Origin: Blasia pusilla
Taxonomy: Eukaryota
Length of the DNA: 64,000 nt
Assembly: GCA_050084515.1 (NCBI GenBank)
Contig: CM114271.1
Coordinates: 8,494,001-8,558,000 of the forward strand
Direction: 5' to 3'
The notes beneath the pieces are model-generated. The model was not told the DNA's origin. It searched no databases and was given only the letters and a program-made list of their open reading frames with translations. Position numbers and translations under genes: made by a program. Of this stretch, positions 1 to 50,487 are shown in pieces; the first letter of the stretch is position 1, and each line of letters opens with the position of its first letter.

Positions 1-15
1 CTTTAACACTTACGC

Positions 16-660
16 AACTCGTCGGACTCCGACGAGTTGCTCGATTGATGAATGGGTTAGGTTTTTTTTTGCTGAAAGCAACTCGTCGGAGTCCGACGGG
101 TTGCTCGACTCGACGCTTTTTCGGATGTTTTTTTAAGAATGTAACTCGTCGGACTCCGACGAGTTGTTCGATTGACCACAGATTTAATTAGTTTTTGGCC
201 CAAAGCAAACCGTCGGAGTCCGACGGGTTGCTCGACTCGCCGCCTTGTCAGGATGTTTTTTGAAGAATGCAACTCGTCGGACTTTGACGAGTTGTTCGAC
301 TGACTGCAGATTTAGAATTTTTTTTGCCCAAAGCAACCCGTCGGAGTACGACGGGTTGCTTGCTTCGAAACTTTTTTTGGCCGAAATCAACCCGTCGGAG
401 TCCGACGGGTTGCATTCGGAAGTTGGTTCCCCAAATTTCGCGTCAAATTGCAAGTTTCCATTCAATTGCGCAACCTGTCGGACTCCGATGCGTTGCTATG
501 TTCACGTTAGTATGTTCAGTTGCACAACCCGTCGAAGTCCGACGGGTTGAAACCAGGCATTAGCAAATCTGAACGCAATCCGTCGGACTCCAACGGGTTG
601 CATCATTTAGCTCGTTCCTAGAATCCGACCTTGAGTTGTGACGACTCCGACGGGTTGCAC
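16..660. repeat. Array of about 11 degenerate 25-bp palindromes (CAACYCGTCGGA-N-TCCGACGRGTTG) in intron 2 of copy A
   Basis: Copies start near 16, 79, 143, 207, 269, 334, 388, 471, 525 and 576, mostly spaced 55-65 bp apart. Confidence 0.9.
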
Positions 661-702
661 GAACCCATGTAATTTCCTGACGGGTTGAGTTTGGATGTGC
701 AG

Positions 703-3659
703 GATTGTATCGGAGGGGAATGTCATCCACCACTAGATCCATGACTGCGATCGGGTGAGGAAGATGCTTACGACGCACCTGAGAGAGTATAGGGGGTTCT
801 TGGGCGATGCCCTTGTCAATCAGATGCTTGCAAAGGGTGCTCAGATTAAAAAGAAAACTTGGGCAAATAAGTTTATTTCCCAAGATGCAACTGTAACCAT
901 CCTTTGCTGGTTGAAGATACAGGCCGCGAAGAAGAGCGCTGCACTGGAGCTGGAGCGGAGGGAGAAGGTATTTGCGTCTGAGCGCGCGAAATTCATCCAA
1001 GCTGTAGTATCTGCAGCAACAAAATATACGGCGAGCAAGATGCAGCGATACATCAGCATTCTCAACCCCGAACTTGGTCCGGAGTCCTACAAGGAGCTGA
1101 AGGCGATTATCAAGCGCCAGCGGAAAAGGGATGAAGATCCGCATGGTCGGATTGGGGAGAAAGTGTCCTTGGATCGCGTGCATCGGTTTGCGTTGTTCGG
1201 CATAAGCGAAGAGGATCTGACTGATGAAAATCAGTCTCGAGGGCACAAAGGCCCAGAAGAGGGCGGCACACCATCCTCCGGGTGTGTCCAATCCAGTGAT
1301 CTCCCACTGGCTACGCGAATGGTCGTTCTGGGACGCGTTGCGGGTTATCGGGAAGTCCGTGCTGGACGGTCTACAAGCGGAGCTCAGAAGATTAGAGCCC
1401 ATCCCGGATGAAGCAAACCTTGAAAGTTCTGGAGATTTCGAGGTTTGGCTCGACGACATCCGGACAAGCCAACCAAAACCCAGGATTCAAGACAATGTTC
1501 AAGGTTTGCGTCCTCCCTCAGCGAGCTTGACGAAGAAGTAGAGGGGAACAAACGGGATCAAGCAAAGAAGAAGCGAGATCTGAGCAGACGGCCGATGCGT
1601 TCGACTAAAAGCGCCCAACGGATGGTCTTGGTACCTCGTCCGTGTAAGAATGCAGTGCGTGGGGAAAATTACCGGCAGCCTTGAAATTGTGGGCTTCGCC
1701 GCCCAATGCAGAGACATTCTCCATGTACGACATGGAGATGGGGCAGCACATGTCCGATTGATAGATGGAGAATTTCCCCATTTGGCTCGACTTCAACGAC
1801 CCTGAAGACATCACTGATAAGGATTTACGAGTGCTTCATGATGCAGTGGCCTCAGGACAAGACGACATCCCCAATTTCGTGCAGCTTGAAGACTTCTTCG
1901 GAGGAGATGCAGAAGAGCAGGCCCACGAGACAGCTGAGTTGGCTTCCAAGGTCCGCACAACCAAAGACAAATCCACAGCGGGTCTCAAAGGCAACGCGAG
2001 GGGAGGGAAAAATTCAGAGGCCGAGTCTTCCCAAAGAGAGGCTGAAGATTCAAGGCCAGAGGCGGAATCTTCCGGGCAAGCGGGGAGAGAGGGTCGGACC
2101 ACGTCCTCGGCGAAAAAAACCCCACGAGAGTCTGAGGTCAAAGAGACCCTGACAAGCCGTCCGCAGACTCGGGAGAAGCGGAAGCGAGAGGTGCCAGGGT
2201 TGTCCCAAGGAGAATACAGTCCATCATCCTTGGGAAGACACAGACAAACAACGACCCGGACAAGCGTCCTCCTTCAGTTTCTCTCCTTTATTGGATGAGC
2301 TGAAGAGCTTCAGTTCTCAAGCGTCGATACCAGCCATCGATAAATTGACAACGCTGGGACGGAAGCTCCAACGAAACGGGCACGCTGCCTGGACGGTGAA
2401 CGGAGTGGTCAAAGAGGTTGCGGTGGATCTCTTGATCGCTAATCTGCCCTCGGGGTTGCGACTTTGGGGCGAGAATCCGTCGGACGAGGTACCTGAGTGG
2501 AATGTGCCGCTCTCTTATGACCCCATTGCGCTATTGTTCTCCTTTGCAGACGCCTATCTGAGTGAGAGGGGCTGCTTCTTGGTGTTGACTGGAGGGAGCG
2601 AGGACAAGCTCTTCAACCTCCAATGCGTCAAGAGGTCACTAAAGTGGAGGACGGCGCAATCGTGGATCATAAAAAATGAGTACCCACTCCGATCCGCGAC
2701 GAGTCAGATTCGGGTAAGGCTCAATTCCTGTACTATAATCTCAATTATATTTTAAAGATGCATATAATGAGTGTTCATCTCCGTTGAGTGAGTATAATGA
2801 GTGTCAATCTCCATTTTTTTTGTCCGTGAGCAACCCGTCGGAAGGCGACGGGTTGTTGGCTTACAACAGCCCATGCTCGGCTGAGAGCAACCCATCGGTT
2901 TCCGACGGGTTGCATCTTTCCCACATACACAGGGAAAACCGTGGTGTACCTGCAACCCGTCGGAACCTGACGGGTTGCAGTTGCTTTTGGTTTTTCCCTC
3001 TGTTTCCGGAAAGCTGCAACCCGTCGGAAGGCGACGGGTTGGTCCAGGATAAAACAACCCGTCGGACTCTGACATGTTGATCCAAAGTTAGTAATTGAAA
3101 ATGTTCTCAAGCCGACTTCTTTAGTTGCTGACATTGTTTCCAACGTGCTTATTTCTGAGATGGACCACTCCTCGTGTCTTTGGCCGTTCGCCCGAGCACA
3201 ATTTCGGTGTTCAAGATCCAGGATCCTGTGGATCCATGCTCGATGGGTACACTTAGATAGTTTGTACAATTCCCCGGAATTTACATGCAAAAACGATACC
3301 CTTCGGGAGGAAGGGAAAAGTCGCCAGCCCTGATGCAAACGCTCATCGAGCTCTGCTCAAGGCCAGGTGACTTGATGTTCGACTTAGTGGGACTTTCAGG
3401 GGCAAGTATCAAAGGCGCCTGGCAGAGTGGCAGGAACATTCTCTGCCTCGAGGGAAGGCAGGAACTGTTTGACCTTTGCAAGGAGGCAAAGGAAGAATAC
3501 GAAAGGCTCGTTGGGGCGTACAACTCTCCACCGAAGCCGAGAGCTCCGGTTCCAGACCCACCCTTGGTAGTGACTCCATTGTCACTTCCAACGATTCCAA
3601 AAATCGGGAGGGCAAGGCCAAAAGTAAATTTGCAAGAGCTCTCGGACGATGACGAGTGA
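703..3659 (+). pseudogene. Exons 3-4 of the ParB/amino-methyltransferase-like gene, copy A
   Basis: Acceptor TGCAG|G at 702/703, donor CGG|GTAAG at 2713/2714, acceptor GAG|ATG at 3159/3160. Motifs VDLLIANLPSG (about 2420-2455) and EKSPALMQTLIELCSRPGDLMFDLVGLSGASIKGAWQSGRNILCLE (about 3315-3450). Contains frameshifts and stops. Confidence 0.75.
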
Positions 3660-5272
3660 GTTCAAAGAACTCAACGACCCAGCTTGACTGCAGCGTTTGG
3701 AGTAGGGAGTTTTTTGATGATGAGGCAAAAGATTTCATAGAATAGATCAAATATACAGATTCGAGCTTTTTTCGGATGATATAAAGGAGAAGATTTTTTC
3801 GAACGATGGTGGTGCTTATAAAAGTTTGCTGAACATTTTTTGTCTTTTCGAATGTGATCGTCTATGAACTCCGCGGACTTCTATTTTGCAACCCATCGGA
3901 TTTCTCCTGCTTGCAACTTTTCACTTTTTGACCACTGCAACCCGTCGGATTTCTCCTACTTGCAACTTTTCACTTTTTGACCACTGCACCTTTTTACCAC
4001 TTCCAGGCAACCTGTCGGATTTCGACAGGTTGCCTGATCGGACTCTTTCTCTGTTGGTCCAACTTAAGAGGCAGTCTGGCGGGATTTTTCCCTTGGCACC
4101 TTCCCCTCGACCGTTATGGTGTACCTAGGGGGGGGCCAAGGCTCTCGAATTCACCAACATTTTCGATCCCCGTCTACAATCGGCCAGAGGAGCCACTTGT
4201 ATCCCAGGACATTCCTTTGGTACTGTCACCGAGGAGAGTTAGGAGTAAATTTGTAGATGATGAGGCTGAAGAAATCATAGACTAGGGCAAATGTACATTT
4301 CCGAGGTTCCTTCGGAGGTAATAAAGCACAAGATTTTTTCAACCCATAATGGTGTTTGTAAAAGTTTGCTAGAATATTTTTTTGGACTTGTGGATTGTGT
4401 TCTTTTAGCTACTCAGAATTACAATTCTGCAACCCGTATGATTCCGACGGGTTGCAACTTTTTGCTTTTTTGCCCATCGCAACTTTTTAACCATTTCAGG
4501 CAAGTGCCGGTTCGCGGAGTTCATTGCTTGAGTGATCGGACTCTTTCCTTGTGAGACCAACTTCTGACGCATTGTGGCGGGCTTCTTAACTTTTGGCTCG
4601 TTCCGCTACATTCGTAAAACCAGTTGTAGGCTTCTTTTCTTGTCTAAGATGCAGGATTCCTACTACCGTCGGATTGCCATTTCGGATTTCCAACTTTGTT
4701 AGATTGTCGTGGGTGCGGGGTGGAAGAAAATCACTTCTAAAAATCTTTCCTTTCTTATGGTGAGCTTTCTTATGGGTTGGGAGGGGTGCGGCTTCTCGGT
4801 TTCTCGACCTTAGGATCGATGTGTTTTCATTTCACAAAGTTGGTCTTGAGCAGACACCATTCATAACCAACAAAAAGTTGGTTATGGGGCAATTTAGGGA
4901 GGCCATGATGATGAGCAACAATCCTGCAAAAGAGAGGTTGGCATCCGGGTGGTCCTCCAAAAAAATACCAAAGTCTTGCTTTTTGTTGACCGAGACAGGG
5001 AATGTTAAGAAACTTAGGCTCACATTGAGAGTGATGGAAAAATGTTTGTAGTGGTCTTATGATGTCTCCTTTTTTTCCCTTGAGGAAAGAGGAGGTTTTT
5101 TTAGGGCCAAATGTGGACCACTAAATACTCTCTTCTAAAGATTTCCTGAATTTGAAAGCAAACAAAAATTTCAAATATGTCAAAAAGTTTTGAAGAGAGG
5201 AGGCGGATTTGGCCCTTTTTTTTTAAGAGAGACTCTCCTCTCTTACTCTCTCATGCCAGAATACCAGCCCCC

Positions 5273-5590: not shown

Positions 5591-5596
5591 CAATTG

Positions 5597-5690
5597 AGGT
5601 ACGTAAAGCATGCTAACAAGAGCAAGCGCCAAGTGAGATTCCAAGTGGGGGAACAAGTGTGGTTGAGTGTGAAGAATCTCACTCTTTCGA
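5597..5690 (+). mobile_element. Short fragment of chromovirus-type gypsy integrase C-terminal region
   Basis: RYVKHANKSKRQVRFQVGEQVWLSVKNLTL is nearly identical to the reverse complement of about 59775-59865. Confidence 0.8.
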
Positions 5691-29748: not shown

Positions 29749-30747
29749 GGGGCTGGTATTCTGACAGGAGAGAGTAAGAGAGGAGAGTCTCTCTTAAAAA
29801 AAAAAGGCCAAATCCGCCTCCTCTCTTCAAAACTTTTTGACATATTTGAAATTTTTGTTTGCTTTAAAATTCAGGAAATCTTTAGAAGAGAGTATTTAGT
29901 GGTCCATATTTGGCCCTAAAAAACCTCCTCTTTCTCGGGGCGAGAAAAAAAGGAGACATCATAAGACCACCTAAACATTTTCCATCACTCTCCATGTGAG
30001 CCTAAGTTTCTTAACATTCCTGTCTCGGTCAACAAAAAGCGTGCCCTTGGTATTTTTGTTGGAGGACCACCCGGATGGGTACCTCTCTTTGCAGGATTGT
30101 TTGCATCATGGCCTCCCTAAATTGCCCCATAACCAACTTTTTCGGTTATGAATGGTGTCGACTCAAGACCAACTTTCTGAAATGTGAACAAATCAGATCC
30201 TTAGGTGAGAAACGAGAGTTGCACCCCTCCCAACCCGTAAGAAAGCTCACCATAAGAAACGAAATATTTTTAGAAGTGATTTTCTTCCACCCTGCACCCA
30301 CGACGATCTAACGGGTTGGGAATCCGAAATGGCAATCCGACAGGTAGTAGGAATCCTGCACATCTTAGACAAGAAAAGAAGCCTACAACTAGTTGGACGA
30401 ATGAAGGGAAACGAGCCAAAAGTCAAGAAGCCGCCACAATGCGCCAGAAGTTGGTCTCTGCGGGATAGAGTCCGATCACTCAAGCAGTCAACCTGTCGGA
30501 ATCCGACAGGTTTCTTGGAAATGGTTAAAAAGTTGCAGTGGGCAAAAAGCAAAAAGTCGGAATCATACGAGTTGCAGAATTGTAATTATGAGTAGCTAAA
30601 AGAACACAATCCACAAGTCCAAAAACATATTCCAGAAAACTTTTACAAACACTATTATGGGTTGAAAAAATCTCGTCCTTTATTACCTCCAAAGGAACCT
30701 CGGAATTGTACATTTCACCTAGTCTATGATTTCTTTAGCCTCGTCAT

Positions 30748-31008
30748 CTACAAATTTACTCCTAACTCTCCTCGGTGACAGTACCAAAGGAATGTCCTGG
30801 GATTCAAGTGGCTCCTTTGGCCGATTGTAGACGGGGATCGAAAATGTTGGCGAATTCGAGAGCCTTGGCCCCTCCCTAGGTACACCATAACGGTCCCATG
30901 TAACCTGTCTCGAGTCCCACCACCTTCCTCGGCAGTATACCTTGTACGCTCTGCAATGTGACACCCATCCAATATCAATATCTGCTCCGTCCCCGGTAAT
31001 ACCATTAT
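30748..31008 (-). CDS. Small conserved ORF (about 85 aa) downstream of the ParB-MTase gene
   Basis: The same frame and stop position are kept in diverged copy E (11959-12201), with several synonymous changes. Confidence 0.4.
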   Translation of the reverse strand: MMVLPGTEQILILDGCHIAERTRYTAEEGGGTRDRLHGTVMVYLGRGQGSRIRQHFRSPSTIGQRSHLNPRTFLWYCHRGELGVNL

Positions 31009-31533
31009 GGCAACCGCACAGGTAGAAGGAATCCAACACGTCTGAGAGAAGAAAAGAAGAAGCCTACGCCTGCCTTTACGAGTTGAGGGGAAGGTGCCAA
31101 GGGAAGAAGCCCACCAGACTGCCTCTTAAGTTGGACCAACAGGGAAAGGGTCTGATTAGGCAACCTGTCGGAATCAGACAGGTTGCCTGGAGGTGGTAAA
31201 AAGGGTGCAGTGGTCAAAAAGCGAAAAGTTGCAAGGAGGAGAAATCCGACGGGTTGCAGTGGTCATAAAGTGAAAGTTGCAAGCAGGAGAAATCCGACGG
31301 GTTGCAAAATAGAAGTCCGTGGAGTACATAGACGATCACATTCGTAAAGACAAAAAATGATCAGCAAACATTTACAAGCACCATCATCGATCGAAAAAAT
31401 CTTCTTCTTTATATCATCCAAAAAAAGCTCGGAACTGTACATTTGATCTATTCTATGAAATCTTTTGCCTCATTATCAAAAAACTCCCTACTCCAAACGC
31501 TGCAGTCAAGCTGGGTCGTTGAGTTCTTTGAAC

Positions 31534-34500
31534 TCACTCGTCATCGTCCGAGAGCTCTTGCAAAATCACTTTCGGCCTTGCCCTCCTGATTTTGGGAATC
31601 GTTGGAAGTGACGATGGAGTCACTACCAAGGGTGGCTCTGGAACCGGAGCTCTCGGCTTCGGTGGAGAGTTGTACGCCCCAACGAGCCTTTTGTATTCTG
31701 CCTTTGCCTCCTTGCAAAGGTCAAATAGTACCTGCCTTCCTCAGGCGAGAAGAATGTTCTGCCACTCGCGGGCGCCTTTGATACTTGCCCTGAAAAGTCC
31801 CACTAAGTCGAACACCAAGTCACCCGGCCTTGAGCACGGACTCAATGAGCGTTTGAATCGGGTGGCGACTTTTCCCTTCCTCCCGTAAGTGGGTATCTTG
31901 TCTTGCATGTAAATTCCTGGGGGGGAATTGTACAAACTATCTAAGCTGTACCCATCTGAGCATGGATCCACAGGATCCCGGATCTTGAACAGCTGGAAAT
32001 TGTGCTTGGGCCGATCGAAGCAGTAGACGTAGGAGTGGTCCATTTGTAAATCAGCACGTTGGAAACAATGTCAGAAACTAAAGAAGTCGCCTTGAGAAGA
32101 TTTTCAATAACAGACTTTGGATCAACCTGTCGGAGTCTGACGGGTTGTTTTGTCCCATATCAACCCATCGGAACCCGACGGGTTGCAGTTGCTTTTGGAT
32201 TTTCCCAGTTGATTTTGGTTTTTGGATGCAACCCGTCGGAAGGCGACGGGTTGCTAGCCTAGAGCAACCCATGCTGGCTTGAGAGCAACCCATCGCTATC
32301 AGGCGGGTTGCATCCAAAACCAAAATAAACGGGAAAACTCCAAAAGCAATCGCAACCCGTCGGTTCGACGGAGTTTGCGTACACCGCGTTTTCCCTGTGT
32401 ATGTGGGAAAGATGCAACCGTCGAAAACCGACGGGTTGCTCTCACCGAGCATGGGTCGCTCTAAACCCGACAAGAACCCGCCTTCCGACGGGTTACTCAC
32501 GGACAAAAAAAACCCAGATTGACTCTCATTCTACACATCATTATAAGATAATTGAAATTATTGTACAGGAATTGAGCCTTACCCGAATCTGACTCGTCGC
32601 GGATCGGAGTGGGTACTCGTTTTTATGATCCACGACAGCCGTCCTCCACTTTAGCGACCTCTTGGCGACTGGAGGTTGAAGAGCTCGCCCTCGCTCCCTC
32701 CATCAATACCAAGAAGCAGCCCCTGTCACTCGGATAGGCGTCGCAAAGGAGAACAAAAGTGCAACTGGTCATAAGTGAGCGGCACATTCCACTCAGTACC
32801 TCGTCCGCCGGATTTTCGCCCCACAATCGCAACCTCGAGGGCAGATCGGCGATCAAGAGATCCACCGCAACCTCTTCCACCACTCCATTCACCGTCCAGG
32901 CAACGTGCCCGTTTTGTTGGAGCTTCCGCCCTAGCGTTGTCAATTTTTGATGGCGGTTGTCGACGCTTGAGAATCTATTCGGCTCATCGAAGAAAGAGGT
33001 GAATCGAAGGAGGACGCTTGTCGGGTCGTTGTTTGTCTGTCTTCCCAAGGATGATGGGTGTATTCTCCTTGGGACAACCTGTGCACCTCTCGCTCGCTTC
33101 TCTCCCTAGTCAGGGACGGCTTGTCGGGGTTTCTATGACCTCGGATTCGTGGCGTTTTCTTCGCCGAGGACTTGGTCCGACCCTCTCTCCCGCTTTCGTC
33201 CGGACGATTCCGCCTCGGCCTCTCATCTTGAGGCTCTCTTTGGGAAGTCTCGGCCTCTGAATTTTTCCCTCCCCTCGCCTTGCCTTTGAGACCCATTTGT
33301 GGATTTGTCTTTGGCTGTCCGGACCTTGGAAGCCAACTCGGCTATCTCGTGGGCTGCTCTTCTGCATCTCCTCGAAGAAGTCTTCAGCGGACGAAATTGG
33401 GGATGTCGTCTTGTCTGAGGCCCTTTGCATCATGAAGCACTCGTAATTCCTTATCCGTGATGTCTTCAGGATCGTTGAAGTCGAGCCAAATGGGGCAATT
33501 CTCCACCTCCCAATCGGACATGTGCTGCCCCATCTCCACGTCGTACATGGAGAATGTCTCTGCATCCGGCGGCGAAGCCCACAATTTCAAGGCTGCTGGT
33601 AATTTTCCCCACGTACCTGCGTTCTTACATTGGATGAGGTACCTGAAGACCATCCGTTGGGCAGCTTTTAGTTGAACAGAATCGGCCGTCTGCTCCTGTA
33701 GATCTCGCTTCTTCTTCGCTTGATCCCGTTTGTTCCCCTCTACTTCTTTGTCAAGCTCTGCCTGAGGGAGGACGCAAACCTTGAACATGGTCTTGAATCC
33801 AGGGTTTTTGGTTGGCTTGTCCCGGATGTCGTGGAGCCAAACTTGTAGTCTCCAGAATTTTCAAGGTTTGCTTCCGGCGGAATGGGCTCTAATCTTCGAG
33901 CTCGCTTGCGGACCGTCGCCCAAAGACGGACTTCCCGATTACCGCAACGCGCCCCGTAACGACCATTCGCGTAGCTAATGCGAGATCATCGGATCGGACA
34001 CACCCTAAGGATGGTGTGCCGCCCTCTTCCGGGCCTCTCAACCTCGAGATCGATTTTCATCGATCGTATCCTCTGAACTCGCTAATCCCGGATAACGCAA
34101 AACGATGCACGCGATCCGGCGACACTTTCTCCCCAATCCGACCATGCGGATCTTCATCCCTCTTCCGACGCTTGATAATCGCCTTGACTCCTTGTAGAAC
34201 TCCGGACCAAGTTTGGGGTTGAGAATGCTCATGTATCGCTGCATCTTGCTCGCCCAGCGTATTTTTTGCAGCAGATACAAACGGCTTGATGAATTTGGCG
34301 CGCCAGACGCAGATACCTTCTCCCTCCGCTCGGCTCCATTGCGGCGCTTTTTTCTTGCGGCTTTGTATCTTCGACCAAAGCAAAGGATGGTTACTGGCTT
34401 TGCATCTTGAGAAATAAACTTGTTTGCCCAAGTTTTCTTCTTAATCTGAGCACCCTTTGCAAGCATCATCTGATTGACAAGGGCATCGCCAAGAACCCCA

Positions 34501-36100
34501 GTACTCTCCCGGTGCGTCGTAAGCACCTTCCTCACCCGATCGCAGTCCTGGATCCAATGGTGGGTGACATTCCCTTCCGATACAATCCTGCACATCCAAA
34601 CTCAACCCGTCAGGAAATTACATGGGTTCCTACAACCCGTCGGACTCCAACGGGTCGTCACAGCTCAAGGTCGGATTCTAGCAACAAGCTAAATGATGCA
34701 ACCCATCGGAGTCCGACGGATTGCATTCAGATAAGCAAACCGTCGGACTCCGACGGTTTGCTTTGGGCCAAAAACTAGTCAAATCTATGTTCAATCAAAC
34801 AAGTCGTCGGAGTCCGACGAGTTGCTTTCGGCAAAAACAAACCTAACCCATTCATCAATCGAGCAACTCGTCGGAGTTCGACGAGTTGAGAAAGTGTTAA
34901 AGATACTCACGTGTTCATGGCATGCATTGCCATCTCCACCGTCGCCATGTGATGAGGGTATGGGTGAAGGACCACTGCCTTCACGCAGAAATGTGCCTCC
35001 AATGAGTTGGGCCGCTCCTCTGCAAATTTGGTCCACGCCATGAACCTGTGATTTCCATCCTAGATGAAGAAATGCAGATTCCTCATCCAGCTGAATTCCG
35101 TGCCCTCAACTTGCCTTCTGAAGTCCTGGTCTCGCATCCTTCAGAATGTGTCGAGCTTTTCCAAGTCCTCCTCGGTAACCACAGCTTGGGTTCCATGCTT
35201 GTCGTAAGGCTGAACATAGAAGGGAGGAAAGCTGTCGACGTAGGATGTTGTCGCCGCCGATTGTTTTAGCTTCGCGATGTCCTCGTCGGACTAAATTTCG
35301 CGGACGTATTCCATTGTCCGCAATCGGTAGAGTGGAATCCTCGGGGCGTTGTGGCCCTCCATGAGTGCCATCTGCTTTACCACTTGTCAGAACCGGGACA
35401 AGAATAAGCTACACTAGAATCCCAATGAATTGCAATTCTCATAATTAAAAAAACCCAGAACCTCTCTTACCCGCTCGAAAATGGGGTCGGTTTCTTGACC
35501 AGCTAACTTGTCTGCGACAGAGGCTGGCAAATCGACTGGAAACTCGTCGATCCGATAGAGGTCGATGACCTCTGCCAGGCTTGGAGTCGAGAATGACCGC
35601 TCTCCGGCTTCTTCGGCCATGTCCACCATCTCCACGTTGGCGGTCCTCATGACCTCGTCGTCATCGATTTCAACTTCTCTTGTTTCCACTATGTTGATTG
35701 TGTCCCCGGACTTTGTGGGGGACATTTTTCGCATCTCAACACTTGCGGTTGGACGGGCTGGGCTATCGTCAATGGCTATCACTTTTTCCCTCCTCGCTTT
35801 AGCCAATTCTGCCCTCCTCACCGACGCGTCAAGACGCTTCTTTTCTCTCTTTTCGTCGGCGATCCTTTTCTTCAAGGCCTGCGACGTCTCGGCCTCTTTG
35901 TTCTCTTTATCTAGCGCCTCTTGAACACGTCTTGCAAGAAGCACTTGGTTATGCATCTCCGCTTCCCTTTCCCGCTCCTCGATTTCCTGCTGCCTAATTT
36001 CATTCGCCGAACGAGGCCCAGGAGAAGCTGACGTAGGAGTCCTAATGGACTTGGGAGTGAAGCTCCCAGACTTGTTGGCTTGTGATTTTTTCCTCGTCAT
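31534..36100 (-). pseudogene. Four-exon ParB/Srx-domain plus amino-methyltransferase-like gene, copy B
   Basis: Exons are about 36100-35471, 35383-34911, 34587-32583 and 32043-31534, with GT donors and compatible phases. Exon 2 reads IPL.RL..M..VR....DIAKLK...FFI*DGNHRFMAW. VDLLIADLPS and GDLVFDLVGL motifs are present. Confidence 0.78.
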
Positions 36101-36374
36101 TTTTGCCGGAAATGCCTCCACCTATGTCCACGACAAATTCCTTGATCAGTCGCCTTGCTGATGTCGAGATGGGAGCTCGAATCGCCTTGATGGTTAGCTC
36201 GAATCGTCCCGCTATCGCTCGGTCGAACCGTCTCGCTCTCGTTCCCTCCTATCGACTCGCGATGTGTTGCCGTGTGAAATGCCCCTTCGTATCTGATCAG
36301 CTGCTGCGTGGGAGAGTGAGGAGTGAGGAATGAAGATCGCGAAATGAGAAACCGGAAATGAGCAATTTCTGCCC

Positions 36375-36382
36375 TATTTATA
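36375..36382 (-). promoter_or_regulatory. Putative TATA box of the ParB-MTase gene
   Basis: TATAAATA on the minus strand at the edge of the palindrome array. Copy C has TATAAAC near 49464-49470. Confidence 0.45.
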
Positions 36383-36469
36383 CTTTTCTAGCCGTTGGGC
36401 TGACCGTTGGGTCCCGTCCTCCTTTCGACGGCGACGTGCCGGATGTTACGGAAGTCCGAACGTGAAAAA

Positions 36470-37190
36470 TGGCAGCCCGTCGAAGTCCGACAGGTGGCGC
36501 GGCTCCGCCATCCTGGGTACGTCGCCACGTGTGCGAGCAACCCGTCGGAGACCGACGGGTCGAGCGCCTCCGTCGTCTTGGAAAAAGAACGCGAGGTACC
36601 CGCGCAACCCGTCGGAGACCAACATGTTGCGCGCCTCCACCATCCTGGGTACGTCCCCACATGCGCAAGCAACCCGTCGAAGACCGACGGGTTGAGCGCC
36701 TCCGTCGTCTTCGGAAAACAACGCAAGGTACCCGCGCAACCCGTCGAAGCCCGACATGTTGCGCGCCTCCGCCGTGTTTGGGACGGGAACAGGACCTATC
36801 TTGGGCAATCCGTCGGAGACCGTTGGGTTGCACGCTTCCCTCATCAAGGGTTAGGAACGAGGGCTTCCCGTGCAAGTCGTCGGAGTCTGGCTGGCTGCAC
36901 CACAAGGCGAGGCCCTTGCGCAACCCGTTGGACGGCGACGGGTTGCACGCTTCGCCGTCTTTGGGCTAAAAGGCGAGGCACCCGCGACACTCGTCGGGAA
37001 CAGACGGTTTGCACGCCTCCGGCATCTTCAGGCAAGAAGGATCAGTATCCGAACAACTCGTCGGAGAGCGACGGGTTGCTCGCTTCGAAAATGTTTCGCA
37101 GAAGCGTGCAACCTGTCCGATGCCGACGGGTTGCAGGCTTCGGTTAGCTTCGGGTAATTTCTGAGTTACCAGGACTCCGACGGGTTCCAA
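36470..37190. repeat. Palindrome array in the divergent intergenic region of copy B
   Basis: Copies start near 36473, 36538, 36605, 36670, 36737, 36806, 36873, 36921, 36987, 37054 and 37109, with a 65-69 bp period and a 132-bp dimer. Confidence 0.9.
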
Positions 37191-37343
37191 GTGTGATTCG
37201 CAACCCTCTGCTTCCCAAATCCGGTAACATATTGCAATAGAATTGAATGTGTTACAGAATTGGATCCATTGTGTCAGACAATGTCACCCACCGAATTCAT
37301 CTTGTCAATAAAAAACTGTCAAGAGTATCTGTTTCCTATTCAC

Positions 37344-37350
37344 TATAAAT
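37344..37350 (+). promoter_or_regulatory. Putative TATA box of the transposase gene
   Basis: TATAAAT about 50 bp upstream of ATG 37396, conserved at about 50430. Confidence 0.5.
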
Positions 37351-37395
37351 TAAATATTCTCATTCTCAGTCTCCTCCCGTTGGAATCTTCTTGGA

Positions 37396-40300
37396 ATGGA
37401 TAATTATGTTAAGCTCACTTGTGGCAGTCATCTGGCGGCCCTTCCTCAATCGGAAATCATTCGACTCCAAGCTCGTGAGTCTTTCAGAGCAGTGGATGAA
37501 AATTTTCTATCTGTTCGATTTCTTCTTCAAATTGGAACCATCTTTGTATCCAAAGATGTTAGGGTGGATGGTACGGAAGACATAATAGGTGAGACGGTCC
37601 AGCCAGTGACCTCAGACCGTAAAGTATGGAATCTCCTACCTCTACCAAATGGTCAATACAGAGTTTACGGCCCTTTCGACCGATTTGTTTCCCAAGTAGA
37701 CGGTCTAGAATTTCCTAGTGCTCCGAGCTCTACTTTTGCAACTCCAAGCTCTGCAGATCTGGCTTCGACTCCAACTTCGCACGCTCATAACAATGTTGTT
37801 TTTCCAGAAGAGATTCCGGATGTTATCAACCTCGGTGGATCTGCTTTCGGGCACCAATCGGGCCTCGTCCGCCTACTCGTTCTCTTGCGAGTATCGGCAA
37901 TAGTTTGCTTTTCGTCTCGCCCTTGAAAATTTTCAAGCACATTCTTGTCGACAAGCTGCCGCCCACGCACGATGGTAATTGCATTTTTGAGTTGCCTCCA
38001 CTTGCCGCTCTGCTCAAAAGAAGGATGGAGGGCGCTGAAGGGTATGGATGAAAAGTCTCGATTGTCATCGATGGTGCAGGCTTCAACGGACGGTGCTTCA
38101 ATTCAGATGGTCCTTGGATTGTCTCCCGCCGCCAATGCGTGGGAGCCTTGGAGTGTAGAAGTCCAAAGCATGCCCGTTTCTAGAGCGCAATGGCGAGTCA
38201 ATACGCCGCAATTCCCTCCCAAGAATGCAGAAACTCCATACGAGGTCGGTGCCACCATACCGGGGAGGCCATCGATGTCCTCATTGTCGCATCGCCCTTC
38301 TGCGTTGGAGCGTGTCTGCATACATATTTTTCATTGTCCACGACTTGGGCTCCACGCCGAGTATACAAGGCTGGCTGTCCATGTTGGCTCCCACACTCAT
38401 CCTGTGACCGATGCAATTCAAAGCCACATCAAGGAGGATGTGGCGAAGAAAGTAGCCGAGGTCTACAGAAACTCTCCGTGTTCAAAGCCCGGAGTGATCA
38501 AGCTCACAACGGCATCACAAATTTGTGAACAATTGCTTGGAATCCTTGGACAGGGCAAGATCACGGCGGTTGAGGAGAAACAACTCTGGGAAAATCTCGC
38601 ATTTCTCGCGGATCCTGAATGCTTCCGAATTTGCGTCGATACGAGTTCGGATGGAAAGACGGGCGAAATGGATGCCATCGCTAATCAAGGCCAACTTTAG
38701 ATTTCCATTCATTCAGAGATGGCAGTTCATGGGCCAAGGAGGCAAGGGATCCAGGGCCTATGTCTTTGAAATGTCAACCACAGGTCCGTCGAGTGGCCTT
38801 GATCTTATAGATCGAATGAGGGAAGGGGAAGATCTTTACGGGAGTTGGGTAAGCTTTGATATTTGCTCTGAGTCTTTGAACAGATGGTTGGCACGGGTGC
38901 TCACATTTATGACCATGTGGAGAAGGGACTCAAAACTATATTTGTCTGTGAAGTAAAGGCGTAAGACGCGTTGGCGGTTTGAAGATGTCTTTGGTTACTC
39001 TTCTTGGAGGTGGTGAAGGAAAACAAAAGGCCACCTCCGGAAATTTATGGGTTCATGGCGGACAATGCACAACCTGGGTGGATTGCTATCCGGGAAGTGT
39101 TCAGGGTGAGAGGTTCAACCGGAGAGGGAAAGGTCGGATGCTTTCCATTGGCAAATGATCTGTGACCCGGTACACCAAATCTTGCATCAAGGAGAATAAG
39201 AGGACAGAGCATGTCACTCTACTCCAACGCTGCAGGGATAGCAAAACCTTGAAGCAGGCCATGGAATGCCAGGAAGAACTTCATGGGTGGTGGAGGAAGC
39301 ATGCGATTGAGGGGAAGTACAAAGAGTTGTGCTCTTGGTTGAGTCGGTGGACTGTACGTATGAGACAATGGGGAAACTTCATGCGGCAGGTGAGTTCACT
39401 ATTTTGTCTTGTCAAGCTCACACTGAGAATTGTTTGTAAAGTTGTAGCTCAGGATGAGAAGCGTGGGAATTATATGGATTTCAAACCCAAGAAACCAAGC
39501 TAGCTGTCGGATGCGACGGGTTGCCCAAGTGTGCAACCCGACGGAAACTAACGGGTTGCCCAAGGGTGCAACCCGACGGAAACCGACGGGTTGCCCGAGT
39601 GTGCAACCCGACGGAAACTGACGGGTTGCCCAAGGGTGCAACCCGACGGAAACCGACGGGTTGCATCCAGATGTTTGGTGTCGTCCCGAGTGTGCAACCC
39701 ATCGGGACCCGACGGGTCCCAGAGTTGTTCATGGGATGCCGCCTTGCAACCCGTCGGGTTCCGACGGGTTGCAGTAGGTGGGTTTAAGGTTACAACACGT
39801 CGGGACCCGACGGGTCGAAGAGTCGTTCATGGGATGCCTCGAGCCTGCAACCCGTCTGGTTCCAACAGGTCGCTTATTTCTTTGACTTCAAGGTTATTTA
39901 CGTTCCCTTCTAACATTGCCGTCGTTGCAGGGATTGAACGTTCATGAAAATGCCCTCCGTCCCAACACAAGTGGAGCTGAAAGTGTTCATTCCTCTTGGA
40001 GGTCGTCACAAGCATGCCAACGAATTTCACTTGTGGAGGCATGCCAACAAGACCAGGCAAGAGCAATGCTACAGTCTGCATCATCCCATATCTTTCTCAC
40101 AAAAGGCATAACAAAAGGAAAAGGGCCGTCGATCTACGAGCTCTATGTCGATGTATTTGTGAGATCTCAGTGATGAAAAATTGTATGTCGAAGCCTTCAA
40201 CCGGTGCGTAGCTGGAACTCCACTCGAGCAAGACGTACACATAGGTGGGGATATTCGTGGGCGGGTTTCAAGACGTCCCATACAGATGGTGGTAGAGTAG

Positions 40301-41431
40301 TCCGAACGAGACTCGTGGAGACCAGATAAGTATCTTGACTTCAGGCAGGTGAAGAGGCAACATCGAGGAACGAATCAGGTGATTGATTTGGATGAGGAAA
40401 TTACACCGCCCAGGTATTCGGGGACCTCGGACCCGTCCCAAATCCGTGATGGAGTTACTTCTCCAAAATCAGTGAATGTTTTATTTCAAAAGCCCTCCGT
40501 TGCTGGAAGTTCGCAACATCCTGTCACTAGGGTGGTTCAACAATATGGGATTCCGGTAGTGGAGGTGGATTGCAACCTAAAACGGTGGCATATATCTCGG
40601 AGCAACCCAGGACATGGACCTACTTGCAGGGCAGGATCTGATGACATTAGGAGAGCATGCGGCACTTTCCTAAATAAGAACTGTACAAGGACTGGACGAC
40701 CTCTGCCTGGGTTTTGGGGACTCAAAACCTTTGATCGTTTCACGAGGACCGGGGATCAATTGAAGTACTTCTTCTGCCCAAATGAATCTTGCGCTTTCCG
40801 GAAGTCTTATCCGGCTGCCATTGGAGCTCCCGTGAATATCCCCACGATTTGGCCCATCGCCGCAGGCACGAACTGCACTCAAGACGAAGTGGACAATCTT
40901 ACAAGTGCCGGTTTGGACTCAGACGGGGAAGTTCGAGCATGTTTGCATTACTGAGAGACCTTCGTGATTTAGTATTCAACCCAAGATTGATGTCAACATG
41001 TACCCGGAGAAGGTGGATGATCTCAATCCATTATTTCTGTTTGAGTCCAAAAATGGGGTGAAGAGAAACAGAATGTGCAGGCCAACGGTGGAGAGAGCAA
41101 AGCGAATTGCATCAGCTCGGGAGGAAAAAATGGAGATCATTGCCACGAAAGATGTCTTGAGTGGCAATGGAATAGGAAGGATGTATTGGGTCAGGACAAC
41201 CACTGTAAATTCAAGTGTCATAGGGGTGTATGTGGTGCACATCTGTTGCTTTCCCACATGTTCATGTGATGACTTTGTCCAAAGAGAGACAAGTGGCAAA
41301 AGGTATTTCCTTGTAAGCACATGTACTATGTGTTCTTTGGTAGTTTTAAGAGAGTCGGAGGTAGGAGTAGGAATCCACCAACCAATTCATCCCTCAAAGA
41401 AGTGCGAAGTATTTTAAACAAACCACTTTGA
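37396..41431 (+). pseudogene. MULE DDE transposase with C-terminal SWIM zinc finger, copy B (intron 39390-39930)
   Basis: WVSFDIC (D, about 38858), FMAD (D, about 39061), DAFHW at the CxxH position, NTSGAESVHS (E, about 39979), and SWIM CSC...CKHMYY. Phase-0 intron CAG|GTGAGT...TTGCAG|GGA. Frameshifted. Confidence 0.85.
39500..39870. repeat. Palindrome array in the transposase intron, including four 35-bp tandem units
   Basis: CAACCCGACGGAAACYGACGGGTTG plus a 10-bp linker at 39534, 39569, 39604 and 39639. Confidence 0.9.
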
Positions 41432-41841
41432 GGATGCAAAATGAGGTTTTAGATTGTACTTTTATTTTTCCTCAACCTTCACTTTGAGCTTGAACTCTAT
41501 TCAGCCCGCGGAAAATGATAGATTTTTCCCAGACCTTGGATGGAAAAAGTGATTGGTTCCACACTTATGATTCCACTGATTTTTCAGTTTTCTAAATTTT
41601 GTGCAATTTGCAACTCGTCGGACTCACAGGGGTTGCCAAAATATGGAAGAGGAAAAAAAAACTGTGGGATTGTTGAATAAATGAACAAAAAAGTGCAAAA
41701 AAATTCACACAAAAAGTTTCCTCTCTTCAACCCAACGGAAACTCTCTTAAAAAAAAGTATCTATTTCGGTTGAAGGTAGTTTCCTCTCTCCTCTCTCCTC
41801 TCTTCCTCTCTTCCTCTCTTCCTCTCCTCTTACCGCACCTC

Positions 41842-42613: not shown

Positions 42614-44409
42614 GGGGGCTGGTATTCTGGCAGGAGAGAGTAAGAGAGGAGAGGAAGAGAGGAAGAGAGGAGAGTCTCTCTTCAAAAAAAAGGGCCAAAT
42701 CCGCCTCCTCTCTTCAAAATTTTTTGACATATTTGAAATTTTTGTTTGCTTTCAAATTCAAGAAATCTTTAGAAGAGAGTAGATAGTGGTCCACATTTGG
42801 CCCTAAAAAAACCTCCTCTTTCTTGGGGGCGAGAAAAAAGGAGACATCATAAGACCACCCTAAACATTTTTCCATCATTGTCCATGTGAGCCTAAGTTTC
42901 TTAACATTCCCTGTATCGGTCAACAAAAAGCAGTGCCCTTGATATTTTTGTTGGAGGACCACCCGGATGGGTACCTCTCTTTTTGCAGGGATTTTTGCCT
43001 GCATCATGGCCTCCCCTAAATTGCCCCATAACCAACTTTCTGTCAATTATGAATGGTGTCAGCTCAAGACCAACTTTCTGAAATGTGAAAAACTCAGATC
43101 CTAAGGCTCAGAAACCGAGAAGCTGCACCCCTCCCAACCCGTAAGAAAGCTCACCATAAGAAACGAACGATTTTTAGAAGTGATTTTCTTCCACCCTGCA
43201 CCCACGACAATCTAACGGGTTGGGAATCCGAAATGGCAATCCGACAGGTAGTAGGAATCTTGCACATCTTAGACAAGAAAAGAAGCCTGCAACTACTTGG
43301 ACGAATGAAGGGGAACGAGCCAAAAGTCAAGAAGCCCGCCACAATGCGTCAGAAGTTGGTCTCACCAGGATAGAGTCCGATCACTCAAGCAGTCAACCTC
43401 TCGGAATCCGAGAGGTTGCCTGGAAATGGTTAAAAAGTTGCAGTGGGCAAAAAGCAAAAAGTCGGAATCATACGGGTTGCAGAATTGTAATTCTGAGTAG
43501 CTAAAAGAACACAATCCACAAGTCCAAAACATATTCCAGAAAACTTTTACAAACACCATTATGGGTTGAAAAATCTCGCCCTTTATTACCTCCGAAGGAA
43601 CCTCGAAATGTACATTGAACCTAGTCTATGATTTCTTCACCTCGTCATCTACAAATTTACTCCTAACTCTCCTCGGTGATGCAGTACCAAAGGAATGTCC
43701 TGGGATTTAAGTGGCTCCTCCGGCGATTGTAGACGGGGATCGAAAATGTTGGCGAGTCGAGAGCCTTGGCCCCCCTAGGTACACCATAACGGTCCCATGT
43801 AACCTGTCTCGAGTCCCACCGCCTTCCTCGGTAGTATACCTTGTACGCTCTGCAATGTGACACCCATCCAATATCAATATCTGCTCCGTCCCCGGTAATA
43901 CCACCATGGCAACCGCACAGGTAGAAGGAATCCAACACGTCTAAGAGAAGAAAAGAAGCCTACGCCTGCCTTTACGAGTTGAGGGGAAGGTGCCAAGGGA
44001 AGAAGCCCGCTGATCTGCGTGATCCGAAGGGTCGATCGGCAACTGTCGGAATCAGACAGGTTGCCTAGAGGTGGTAAAAAGGGTCCAGTGGTCAAGAAGC
44101 GAAAAGTTGCAAGGAGGAGAAGTCCGACGGGTTGCAGTGGTCATAAAGTGAAAATTGCAAGCATGAGAAATCCGACGGGTTGCAAAGTAGAAGACCGTGG
44201 AGTACATAGACGATCACATTCGAAAAGACAAAATGATCAGCAAACATTTACAAGCACCACCATCGATCGAAAAAATCTTCTGCTTTATATCATCCGAAAA
44301 AAGCTCGGAACTGTACATTTGATCTATTCTATGAAATCTTTTGCCTCATTATCAAAAAACTCCCTACTCCAAACGCTGCAGTCAAGCTGGGTCGTTGAGT
44401 TCTTTGAAC

Positions 44410-47400: not shown

Positions 47401-49188
47401 CCTTCCGATACAATCCTGCACATCCAAACTCAACCCGTCAGGAAATTACATGGGTTCCTGCAACCCGTCGGAGTCCGACGGGTCATCACAGCTCAGGGTC
47501 GGATTCTAGCAACAAGCTAAATGATGCAACCCGTCGGAGTCCGACGGTTTGCATTCAGATTTGCTAATGCCAGGTAAGCAACTTGTCGGACTCCGACGGG
47601 TTGCTGGACTGCACGCTTTTTCGGATGTTTTGTTAAGATTGCAACTCGTCGGACTCCGACGACTTGTTTGATTGAACATAGATTTAACTAGTTTTTGGCC
47701 CAAAACAAACCGTCGGAGTCGAGTTGCACTCTTCAAAAAAAATCCTCACAAGGCGGCCTGTCGAGCAACCCGTCGGACTCCGACGGTTTGCTTTGGGCCA
47801 AAAACTAGTTATATCTATGTTCCATCAAACAAGTTGTCGGATTCCGACGAGTTGCAATCTTAAAAAAACATCCGGAAAAGCGTGCAGTCTAGCAACCCGT
47901 CGGAGTCCGACGAGTTGCTTTCTGCCTAAACAAACCTAACCCATTCATCAATCGAGCAACTCGTCGGAGTCCGACGAGTTGCGAAAGTGTTAAAGATACT
48001 CACGTGTTCATGGCATGCATTGCCATCTCCACCGTCGCCATGTGATGAGGGTATGGGTGAAGGACCACTGCCTTCACGCAGAAATGTGCCTCCAATGAGT
48101 TGGGCGCTCCTCCTCCAAACTTGGTCCACGCCATGAACTGTGATTTCCATCCTAGATGAAGAAATGCAGATTCCTCATCCGGCTGAATTCCGTGCCCTCA
48201 ACTTGCCTTCAAGTCCTGGTCTCGCATCCTCCGAGAATGTGTCGAGATTTTCCAAGTCCTCCTCGGTAACAGAGCTTGGGTTCCATGCTCGTCGTAAGGC
48301 TGAACATAGAAGGAGGAAAGCTGTCCACGAGGATGTTGTCGCCCGATTGTTTTAGCTTTGCGATGTCCTCGTCGGATCAGATTTGTGGACGTATTCCATT
48401 GTCCTTAATCGGCAGAGTGGAATCCTCGGGGCGTTGTGGCCCTCCATGAGTGCCATCTGCTTTACCACCTATCAGAACCGGGACAAGAGGAATAAGCTAC
48501 ACTGAAATCCCAATGAATTGCAATTCACATAATTAAAAAAACCCAGAACCTCTCTTACCCGCTCAAAAATGGAGTCGGTTTCTTGACCAACTAACTTGTC
48601 TGAGACAAGGGCTGGCAGATCGACTGGGAACTCGTCGATCCAATAGAGGTCGATGTCCTCCGCCAGGCTTGGAGTCGAGAATGACCGCTCTCCGGCTTCT
48701 TCGGCCATGTCCACCATCTCCACGCTGGCGGTCCTCATGACCTCGTCGTCATCGATTTGAACTGGTGTTGTTTCCACTATATTGATTGTGTCCCCGGACT
48801 TCGTGGGGGACATTTCCCTCATCTCAACACTTGCGGTTGGACGGGCTGGGCTATCGTCAATGGCTATCGCTTTTTCCCGCCTCGCTTTAGCCAATTCTGC
48901 CCTCCTCAACGACGCGTCCAGACGCTTCTTTTCTCTCTTTTCGTCGGCGATCCTTTTCTTCAAGGCCTGCGACGTCTCGGCCTCTTCGTTCTGTTTATCT
49001 AGCGCCGCTTGAACGCGTCTCGCCAGAAGCACTTGGTTGTACATCTCCGCTTCCCTTTCCCGCTACTTGATTTCTTGTTGCCTAATTTCATTCGCCGAAC
49101 GAGGCCCAGGAGAAGCTGACGCAGGAGTCCTAATGGACTTGGGAGTGAAGCTCCCAGACTTGTTGGCTTGTGTTGTTTTCCTCGTCAT
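44410..49188 (-). pseudogene. Four-exon ParB/Srx-domain plus amino-methyltransferase-like gene, copy C
   Basis: Exons are about 49188-48559, 48468-48004, 47415-45403 and 44922-44410, with all three introns GT-AG. Motifs DGNH, VDLLIANLPSG and EKSPALMQTLIELYSRRGDLVFDLVGLS. Confidence 0.78.
47460..47985. repeat. Palindrome array in intron 2 of copy C
   Basis: About 9 copies of the 25-bp palindrome between exon 3 and exon 2. Confidence 0.88.
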
Positions 49189-49559
49189 TTTTTCCGGAAA
49201 TGCCTCCACCTATGCCCACGAAAAATCCCTTGATCAGTTGCCTTGCTGATGTCGAGATGGGAGCTCGTCTCGCCTTGATGGTTAGCTCGAATCGTCCCGA
49301 TATCGCTCGGTCGAACCGTCTCGCTCTCGTTCCCTCCTATCGACTCGCGATATGTCGCTGCGTGAAATGCCCCTTCGTATCTGATCAGCTACTGCGTGGG
49401 AGAGTGAGGAGTGAGGAATGAAGATCGCGAAATGAGAAACTGGAAATGAGCGATTTCTGCCCTGTTTATACTTTTCTAGCCGTTGGGCTGACCGTTGGGT
49501 CCCGTCGTCCTTTCGACGGCCACGTGCCGGATGTTACGGAAGTCTGGACGTGAAAAATC

Positions 49560-50280: not shown

Positions 50281-50487
50281 GATGCGCAACCCTCTGCTTC
50301 CCAAATCCGGTAACATATTGCAACAAAATTGAATGTGTTACAGAATTGGATCCATTGTGTCAGATATTCTCCCCCACCGAATTCATCTTGTCAGTAAAAA
50401 TTTGTCAGGAGTATCTGTTTCCTATTCACTATAAATTAAATATTCTCATTCTCATTCTCAGTCTCCTCCCGTAGGAATCTTCTTGGA

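Follow-up and report, generated by a model that had tools for sequence, protein, structure and literature searches.

Does a gene that shares the motif order of bacterial DNA methyltransferases, but has the signature residues of the working enzymes replaced, still encode an enzyme? The question is raised by a methyltransferase-like gene in a stretch of 64,000 nucleotides from Blasia pusilla (contig CM114271.1, positions 8,494,001 to 8,558,000; this whole stretch is called the window, and positions refer to it). From the letters of this DNA, a first-pass annotation had described a domain built like the beta-class DNA amino-methyltransferases, with non-canonical catalytic and S-adenosylmethionine (SAM)-binding motifs, and had left the choice between an enzyme of altered specificity and an inactive DNA-binding module. 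We find that the domain is homologous to the beta-class enzymes and keeps their motif order, that four of their signature elements are lost, and that these losses are conserved in relatives from mosses. The gene is an accessory gene of a Mutator-like DNA transposon, and the lost residues favour, as far as sequence can tell, an inactive module over an altered-specificity enzyme.

Gene copies, homology and altered motifs

With the open frames of copy A as queries, a tblastn search over the 64,000 nucleotides finds four copies of the gene, A to D. Their extents and the exons that can be placed in them are:

737-3659, plus strand: copy A of the methyltransferase-like gene (tblastn)
47381-44410, minus strand: copy B of the methyltransferase-like gene (tblastn)
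34553-31534, minus strand: copy C of the methyltransferase-like gene (tblastn)
12658-12269, minus strand: copy D, last exon only, with DLVDLSGAS and in-frame stops; diverged subfamily (tblastn)
2411..2713, plus strand: copy A, N-terminal half of the domain, ending at the splice donor (hidden Markov model (HMM) of the Ceratodon domains, E 4e-9, HMM positions 52-146)
2714..3159, plus strand: copy A, predicted intron; donor conserved in A, B and C, acceptor inferred from copy B
3160..3659, plus strand: copy A, last exon; frame damaged at about 3185-3300, followed by the equivalents of motifs X, I and II
44413..44952, minus strand: copy B, last exon (P0001); open frame of 180 codons, the best-preserved C-terminal half of the domain
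45361..45956, minus strand: copy B, exon with the motif IV half; several frameshifts
31534..33109, minus strand: copy C, methyltransferase-like exons and intron; tetrad DLPS, many frameshifts, acceptor mutated

The peptides quoted in the first-pass annotation are all present in open frames of copy A. The open reading frame (ORF) 2153-2755 (+) encodes VDLLIANLPSG at 2423-2455 (tetrad NLPS, 2441-2452) and, as beta5 strand, ERGCFLVL at 2564-2587. Beyond the intron, ORF 3261-3659 (+) encodes EKSPALMQTLIELCSRPGDLMFDLVGLSGASIKGAWQSGRNILCLE at 3315-3452 (EKSPALMQ...ILCLE), which includes FDLVGLSGAS at 3378-3407; a proline-rich tail follows the motif II equivalent and ends at the stop codon at 3657-3659. 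The splice donor, SQIR/gtaagg at 2713/2714, is identical in copies A, B and C in the DNA alignment. The acceptor had been placed directly before EKSP, which is probably too far downstream. Because the open 180-codon frame of copy B, which reads MDHSYVYCFVRPEHNFQVFKIQDP...GGREKSPALMQ, begins upstream of EKSP and opens near 3160 in the numbering of copy A, an acceptor near 3160 (cag/ATGGACC in copy B) appears more likely, with a site at about 3200 as an alternative.

Compared with B, C and D, copy A has small deletions at about 3185-3300 that interrupt the frame on the way from MDHS... to EKSP..., the motif IV exon (exon 3) of copies B and C carries several frameshifts, and copy D has in-frame stops. 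With such lesions in each of them, all four window copies are dead, copy A being the least damaged. Copy D consists of the last exon and the 3' flank only (12216-12777 and 11604-12203) and is about 80% identical to copy A. A majority consensus of the gene from three copies gave a frame no longer than that of copy A and was dropped, B and C being sister copies that share lesions.

There is good support both for homology with the beta-class amino-methyltransferases and for the permuted order of the motifs. Among the sequence comparisons, only the profile-profile comparison is decisive. For this, a canonical reference of 45 sequences was used, made up of E. coli YhdJ and 44 stop-free relatives (24-98% identity), the latter from 45 picked out of 74 IMG/VR loci. 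Aligned with hhalign, a family profile of 33 rows matches these 45 beta-class methyltransferases with a probability of 97.5% and an E-value of 5.8e-12 over 208 collinear columns. The match path pairs IDLIIADAPE with VDLIIxDPPY, GCILLMH with GsmyIm, EKDPSF with QKPEAL, DWSASTGAS with DPFAGSxTT, and ALE with GIE, so that motif IV is followed by X, I and II within a single domain, in the permuted order of the beta class. The moss rows by themselves reach 96.4%, and the three window rows by themselves 94.5% over 149 columns. As controls, a reversed template gave 0.6% and five column shuffles 0.1-0.2%. The beta-class motif order claimed in the first-pass annotation is thus borne out.

Structure-based and feature-based searches point to the same group. 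A Foldseek search of the family model against the PDB returned 20 matches at E ≤ 1e-3, led by M1.HpyAVI (1.9e-5), CcrM (5.4e-5) and M.PvuII (6.7e-4), with M.BceJIV, MTA1, M.RsrI and METTL3-METTL14 next. In VIA, a search independent of Foldseek, the alignments of about 140 residues or more (138-157) are, among the matches listed, to beta-class DNA methyltransferases or METTL3 chains, while most other methyltransferases align over about 75-115 residues. When the family profile was compared with PDB sequences, DpnA came first (E 0.089; DpnA/M1.HpyAVI), and CcrM aligned from motif IV to motif I (E 0.89). N6_N4_Mtase clusters made up 20 of 30 matches in an ESM Atlas feature search. A Rossmann-type fold of the domain, as predicted from the models, is supported only indirectly. 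The first-pass annotation had further pointed to eukaryotic N4-cytosine methyltransferases; no link to N4-cytosine enzymes in particular was found in these comparisons. A PDB sequence search with P0001 alone gave designed TIM barrels and a precorrin methylase (E 0.62), which we rejected as noise.

The domain differs from the canonical enzymes at defined positions, which were counted over the 15 family rows that cover the tetrad and the 15 that cover motif I (P0024, which is unaligned in the tetrad, was excluded there). The canonical tetrads are DPPY in 29 enzymes, DLPY in 5, DAPY and SPPY in 3 each, DPPF and DIPY in 2 each and EPPY in 1. Their fourth position is thus Y or F in 45/45, whereas it is aromatic in 0/15 family rows, which have NLPS (copies A and B), DLPS (copy C), or DAPE, DAPS, DAPD or DTPS (mosses). 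The first glycine of motif I (F-x-G-x-G) shows the same split, with 45/45 in the canonical enzymes and 0/15 in the family; here the sequences read DLVGLSG (A), DLVGLSW (B), DLVGLFR (C), DLVDLSG (D) and, in the mosses, DWS(A/P)(S/N)TG, with the phenylalanine replaced by S or V. In general terms, D-(L/A)-P-(S/E/D) stands in place of (D/S)-P-P-(Y/F), and D-(L/W)-(V/S)-x-(L/S/N)-(S/T)-G in place of D-P-F-x-G-x-G. The segment HPTQKP has become (S/G)REK(D/S)P, with loss of the His-Pro pair. The acidic residue of motif II is retained, ILCLE (window) and LIALE (mosses) aligning with IGIE.

Within the window, the DNA alignment confirms that the changes are shared as the first-pass annotation had stated, with (D/N)LPS in A, B and C and a motif I of the DLV(G/D) type in all four copies. 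An asparagine in the tetrad is found in copies A and B, which encode NLPS, but the consensus of the family is D. In DNA run X1 (organism A), position 2441 has a depth of 3204.2 units, of which 3025.7 read G (Asp) rather than A, and the RNA reads listed at this position are all G (2/2, 6/6 and 9/9 in three runs). The family state is therefore DLPS, and the asparagine of copy A a minority variant.

Compared with known beta-class N6-adenine and N4-cytosine methyltransferases (PF01555; M1.HpyAVI, CcrM, M.PvuII, M.RsrI and E. coli YhdJ), the family hence has the same permuted order IV, then X, I, II. It shares with them a hydrophobic-D-L-I strand before the tetrad, a GCxLL strand, a (Q/E)K-P helix before motif I, the GD-V-D segment and the glutamate of motif II. 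Unlike them, it is without the tetrad aromatic, the first glycine and the phenylalanine of motif I, and the His-Pro before the lysine; its gene has introns and resides in a eukaryotic transposon, and its Pfam score is sub-threshold.

Relatives, selection and transcription

Are the replacements a property of the family or the decay of dead copies? Relatives outside the window bear on this question. A phmmer search with P0001 against 1.84 billion representatives gave three matches at E ≤ 1e-3, of which one, P0004, was kept; P0002 and P0003 are internally repetitive proteins matched in 5-6 stretches and were judged spurious. A homologue search with the last exon of copy A among longer proteins yielded 0 of 332 candidates at E ≤ 1e-3. 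P0004 is the Ceratodon purpureus protein KAG0605740.1, which is 758 residues long and annotated as a hypothetical protein. Word-indexed searches with its domain added three Ceratodon paralogs and 22 shorter fragments at 48-91% identity, and fragment relatives with the same replacements come from five source collections. Identity among these four Ceratodon copies is 89-92% over the domain compared with 78-80% overall, and their locus tags place them on four chromosomes. Built from their four domains, an HMM matches both exon 3 (E 4e-9) and exon 4 (E 4e-10) of the window gene; the whole domain, and not motif I alone, is therefore common to the window and Ceratodon. Labelled 'hypothetical protein', the Ceratodon genes have been overlooked by Pfam thresholds.

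The moss fragments lose homology after ...LPHQK and resume it at THNFNIKV, which corresponds to the window intron after ...SATSQIR. From the alignment, we infer that the moss interruptions are introns. With the LPHQK/SQIR interruption in common, the gene would be an old one in which some of the intron positions have been conserved. The moss-type sequences P0008, P0009, P0013, P0016 and P0020 show an extra interruption inside motif I (STG/AS), which is absent from the window gene.

The ratio of non-synonymous to synonymous substitution rates (dN/dS) was determined by the Nei-Gojobori method on small codon numbers. Values of 0.28 (A-B) and 0.33 (A-C) were obtained for exon 3 with motif IV. For the motif I part of exon 4 they were 1.17 (A-B), 0.86 (A-C) and 0.13 (A-D, with a dS of 0.67). 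On these ratios, diverged lineages have been under constraint, while close copies decay neutrally. Given the values of 0.13-0.33 between diverged copies, the altered motifs are best read as a selected family trait. The recurrence of the altered motifs in Ceratodon and in the fragments, together with these ratios, agrees with the first-pass annotation, which had taken them for a family trait rather than decay.

The gene family is also present beyond the four window copies in organism A. In DNA run X1, 24259 contig pieces align on 600-4300, which makes it a high-copy family there. Three RNA runs with the same species label contain 172, 203 and 187 reads at ≥ 85% likeness and none at ≥ 99%. Their depth is about 0 over 2708-3203 and 6-30 over 3204-3699, and no split reads across the copy A intron are listed in the three runs. 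Most first mates map to the minus strand; if the libraries are of the usual stranded kind, transcription would be in the sense direction. Relatives are therefore transcribed at a low level. Since the reads on copy A carry copy D-like variants, the transcribed relatives belong to the diverged subfamily D.

The Mutator-like element and its palindromes

In what context is such a gene maintained? A self-comparison of the window places it in a repeat of about 11.5-12 kb, of which the following copies and parts were delimited:

1..5272, plus strand: element copy A, cut by the window start and inverted relative to B and C; its accessory-gene end reads ...CAGAATACCAGCCCC(C)
29749..41841, minus strand: element copy C, complete; 9-bp duplication CAAAAAGAT at 29740-29748 and 41842-41850
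42614..54055, minus strand: element copy B, complete; 9-bp duplication GTCACTCTC at 42605-42613 and 54056-64
55494..56090, plus strand: internally deleted derivative of about 600 bp with the same termini and three palindromes; duplication CTTCAATTC at 55485-55493 and 56091-56099
51221..52066, plus strand: putative transposase exon of the Mutator-like element (MULE) type in copy B (ESM Atlas), pointing away from the methyltransferase-like gene

Copy C is inserted in a gypsy-like repeat, an uninterrupted paralog of which serves as an empty site at about 18623-18631 (within 18590-18670). Lying in the same window, this paralog fixes the ends of copy C and its 9-bp duplication. For the derivative of about 600 bp, an uninterrupted target paralog is found at about 20590-20600, and from its termini and duplication it follows that short, non-autonomous members have transposed. 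Target duplications of 9 bp thus flank three insertions (C, B and the mini derivative), with empty sites for C and the mini derivative. They fit the Mutator superfamily, in which 9 bp is usual; its target duplications measure 8-11 bp, and MULEs without terminal inverted repeats exist (PMC6446971). Long terminal inverted repeats were not found in the element, the inverted stretches near its ends being only GA-rich, of low complexity and about 26-46 bp long.

No Pfam family, the MULE/MuDR DDE transposase (PF10551) included, matches the large opposite-strand ORFs at E ≤ 10. In an ESM Atlas feature search with ORF 51221-52066, every named cluster among the matches listed is a MULE transposase, with scores of 0.93-0.84. 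The putative transposase ORFs and the methyltransferase-like gene are oriented away from each other. The methyltransferase-like gene is accordingly an accessory gene of a Mutator-like DNA transposon; that it is transposon-borne, as first proposed, is shown by the 9-bp duplications at three insertions and the MULE-like transposase ORF.

A further open frame (196 codons), whose product would be rich in K, E and R and resemble a coiled coil, is found at 48472-49062 (-). It is situated in the interval that separates the element's two genes, on the upstream side of the methyltransferase-like gene, and has a counterpart in copy C at about 35417-36121 (-). Its best Pfam match (E 0.035) is not significant; it may represent a third gene, belong to an upstream exon, or have no meaning.

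The element is further marked by arrays of palindromes with CpG-rich arms, which occupy the following parts of the window:

1-700, 2826-3075, 3890-4030, 36540-37190, 39530-39820, 47460-47910, 49560-50220 and 52450-52650: palindrome arrays

Their arm CCGTCGG occurs 82 times in the window, compared with 4.1 expected occurrences; the four large copies account for 78 of these and the mini derivative for another 3. Palindromes of the form AACCCGTCGG-N-CGACGGGTT, also given as GCAACCCGTCGGA-N-TCCGACGGGTTGC and with CCGTCGG/CCGACGG arms, fill the intron of copy A. With AACCCGTCGG / CCGACGGGTT as arms, centres of 3-7 nt and two CpG per arm, 15 exact matches are found where 0 are expected. The arrays are confined to non-coding parts of the element, namely upstream of the methyltransferase-like gene, in the introns of both genes, in the 3' flank, in the gaps between transposase ORFs, and between the methyltransferase-like gene and the transposase ORFs.

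Rival readings, known systems and surroundings

By its sequence, the gene is a real, conserved and unannotated transposon gene, for whose function a candidate can be named. For the domain, the best explanation is an origin from a beta-class methyltransferase of the PF01555 type (N6-adenine/N4-cytosine, bacterial or viral). The signature residues of the working enzymes have been replaced in this transposon family, and selection has since kept the replaced state. What is left would be a Rossmann-type scaffold that has lost methyl transfer and is used by the element as a DNA-binding or adaptor module. Because the signature residues are replaced and the replaced state is under selection, we consider it rather probable that the domain no longer methylates and instead acts as a binding or adaptor scaffold, a pseudo-methyltransferase.

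Several points weigh against this reading. The loss of catalysis is deduced from the sequence only. All four window copies are broken, and an intact protein of the source organism was not seen. Two of the altered positions are less telling than they appear, as position 2 of the tetrad varies among the canonical enzymes as well (DLPY 5, DAPY 3 and DIPY 2 of 45) and so does the next glycine position of motif I (G, F or C). The acid of motif II and the GD-hydrophobic-D strand are kept, so that the domain may well bind SAM still. As to the fold, the AF2 model of the whole Ceratodon protein (mean pLDDT 30) is unusable, and that of the Ceratodon domain has a mean pLDDT of 51.7, with 68-91 for residues 55-170 and 31-45 in the C-terminal half. 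The Foldseek TM-scores are only 0.3-0.48, and the VIA Z-scores lie below 8 except for the top row, a tRNA methyltransferase aligned over 79 residues (Z 8.1). Finally, the best Pfam score to N6_N4_Mtase (PF01555), 19.8 bits, falls short of the gathering cut-off of 26.7 bits, the motif IV exon alone has no Pfam match, and the same profile gives E. coli K-12 PrmA 22 bits over positions 170-219.

PrmA is a protein methyltransferase and not a DNA methyltransferase. A sub-threshold match to the end of the model therefore shows only the motif I region of a class I SAM methyltransferase, and this is a useful warning that such N6_N4_Mtase matches are unspecific for DNA methyltransferases. The HMMER comparison with this profile that the first-pass annotation had suggested, using exons 3 and 4, gave a match in part: the last exon of copy A matches at E 8.3e-4 over profile positions 165-220 of 221, but below the cut-off, and exon 3 does not match. 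In the same profile region, copy B reaches E 0.027 and Ceratodon P0004 E 0.015, and 5 of 28 family rows match at E ≤ 1. Sequence-to-profile searches of the family against the 45 canonical enzymes remained at or below 22.6 bits, the motif IV exon of copy A (E 1.8) being not significant.

On the main rival reading, the domain is still an active methyltransferase that acts on DNA (or RNA or protein) through an unusual active site, in which the D/N-x-P-x loop and the motif II acid bind SAM and the target has changed, for example to bases of the palindromes. This reading agrees with the conserved fold, the motif II glutamate and the conserved first (D) and third (P) residues of the tetrad. Purifying selection is compatible with any function, and position 2 of the canonical tetrad tolerates L, A or I. 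Transposon-borne PF01555 and DAM domains have moreover been proposed to be active in red algae (bioRxiv 10.1101/2025.02.11.637652) and in retrotransposons (bioRxiv 10.64898/2026.05.21.726589). Against it stand the two positions that separate the groups completely, the tetrad aromatic and the first glycine of motif I (each 45/45 canonical and 0/15 in the family), and the additional loss of the phenylalanine of DPF and of the His-Pro of HPTQKP. The degenerate paralogs METTL14 and ciliate MTA9 are non-catalytic, and METTL14 chains are among the Foldseek matches. We therefore regard an active enzyme with an odd pocket as unlikely.

The remaining explanations concern the origin of the gene and of its odd motifs. 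A host gene or fragment captured by the transposon in the manner of a Pack-MULE, with no role for the element, would make the Ceratodon proteins the host versions, and MULEs are indeed described as acquiring additional ORFs (PMC6446971). The annotation of the Ceratodon relatives as ordinary hypothetical proteins suits this idea as well; yet Ceratodon too has several copies, which are spread over four chromosomes according to their locus tags and are 78-92% identical, every large window copy contains the full multi-exon gene including its intron, dN/dS is below 1 between element subfamilies, and the family is highly repeated in organism A. Capture of this kind is improbable. On another view, a formerly canonical methyltransferase has simply decayed in dead copies, and the frameshifts or stops in all four window copies and the exon 4 ratios near 1 between close copies (1.17 for A-B, 0.86 for A-C) speak for it. 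However, Ceratodon proteins that are intact as annotated show the same replacements, as do fragments drawn from five source collections; most genomic copies of organism A, like its RNA reads, have DLPS; and the ratios between the more diverged pairs are 0.13-0.33. Mere decay is very hard to reconcile with this, and we give it little credence. Still less credible is that the likeness arose by chance, or that the domain is a generic SAM methyltransferase of class I from outside the beta class. The sub-threshold Pfam score, the equal score of the PrmA control and the designed TIM barrels as main matches of copy B alone among PDB sequences speak for this view, but an hhalign probability of 97.5% compared with 0.1-0.6% for the controls, the collinear CcrM match from motif IV to motif I and the specific Foldseek ranking oppose it.

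Returning to the pseudo-methyltransferase reading, METTL14 beside METTL3 and ciliate MTA9 beside MTA1 are non-catalytic methyltransferase paralogs. With these the window family has in common a permuted amino-methyltransferase fold with a degenerate tetrad, and METTL3-METTL14 and MTA1 are among its structural matches. They differ in that they belong to the MT-A70 family and are partners of an active subunit, for which no counterpart is known in the window family.

A more specific version of the reading concerns the palindromes. Binding at the element's own CpG-rich palindromes would modulate silencing or transposition. The domain might thus be a dead, sequence-specific reader of these palindromes that shields the element from host methylation and silencing or recruits the transposase, a VANC-like function that was invented independently and is conserved with the moss family of Ceratodon; we put this forward as a speculative analogy that is doubtful in its full extent. 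VANC of the Arabidopsis VANDAL elements is a MULE anti-silencing accessory protein, and its short target motifs accumulate in non-coding parts of its own element (PMC5735166, PMC10398659). Since VANC has a MAIN-like and not a methyltransferase fold (PMC13547354), the likeness to the window family is an analogy of layout only.

Closer in protein family is PAG2, an accessory gene with PF01555 and SET domains of red-algal Plavaka, Mutator and Zisupton transposons (bioRxiv 10.1101/2025.02.11.637652). Like the window gene, it is a PF01555-type accessory gene of a DNA transposon, and the elements that carry it are, in the source's description, giant, with inverted-repeat arrays and several accessory genes. 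In PAG2, however, PF01555 is recognised by InterPro and fused to SET, whereas the window domain is sub-threshold and degenerate, a comparison made by description only. The SET domain has no Pfam match in the 117 window ORFs of ≥ 110 codons or in Ceratodon P0004. DAM domains in DIRS and long terminal repeat (LTR) retrotransposons keep the catalytic Asn-Pro-Pro plus aromatic (bioRxiv 10.64898/2026.05.21.726589). They resemble the window family as prokaryote-type adenine methyltransferase domains on eukaryotic mobile elements whose function in the element is, in that source, unresolved; they differ by belonging to another methyltransferase family, by being retrotransposon-borne and by the conservation of the catalytic motif. 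Methyltransferases of other families have been described in virus-integrated Mariner elements (PMC3627910).

Mobile elements with DNA-modification domains are only now being catalogued, among them TET/JBP fungal elements, the red-algal Plavaka with PF01555 and SET, and the DAM retrotransposons. A literature search, with supplementary element annotations outside its reach, found no methyltransferase-like gene described in a land-plant MULE. If the pseudo-methyltransferase reading is true, the present family adds a land-plant DNA transposon lineage that keeps a methyltransferase fold under selection after loss of the catalytic signature. It would provide a case of how a transposon reuses an enzyme scaffold, and a candidate protein partner for the palindrome arrays.

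The window as a whole is repeat-rich eukaryotic DNA with copia- and gypsy-type genes identified by Pfam. A copia-type element at 5273-10600, with Pfam matches to gag, integrase and an SH3-like domain, adjoins the end of element copy A, and several gypsy-type elements are nested around the other element copies.

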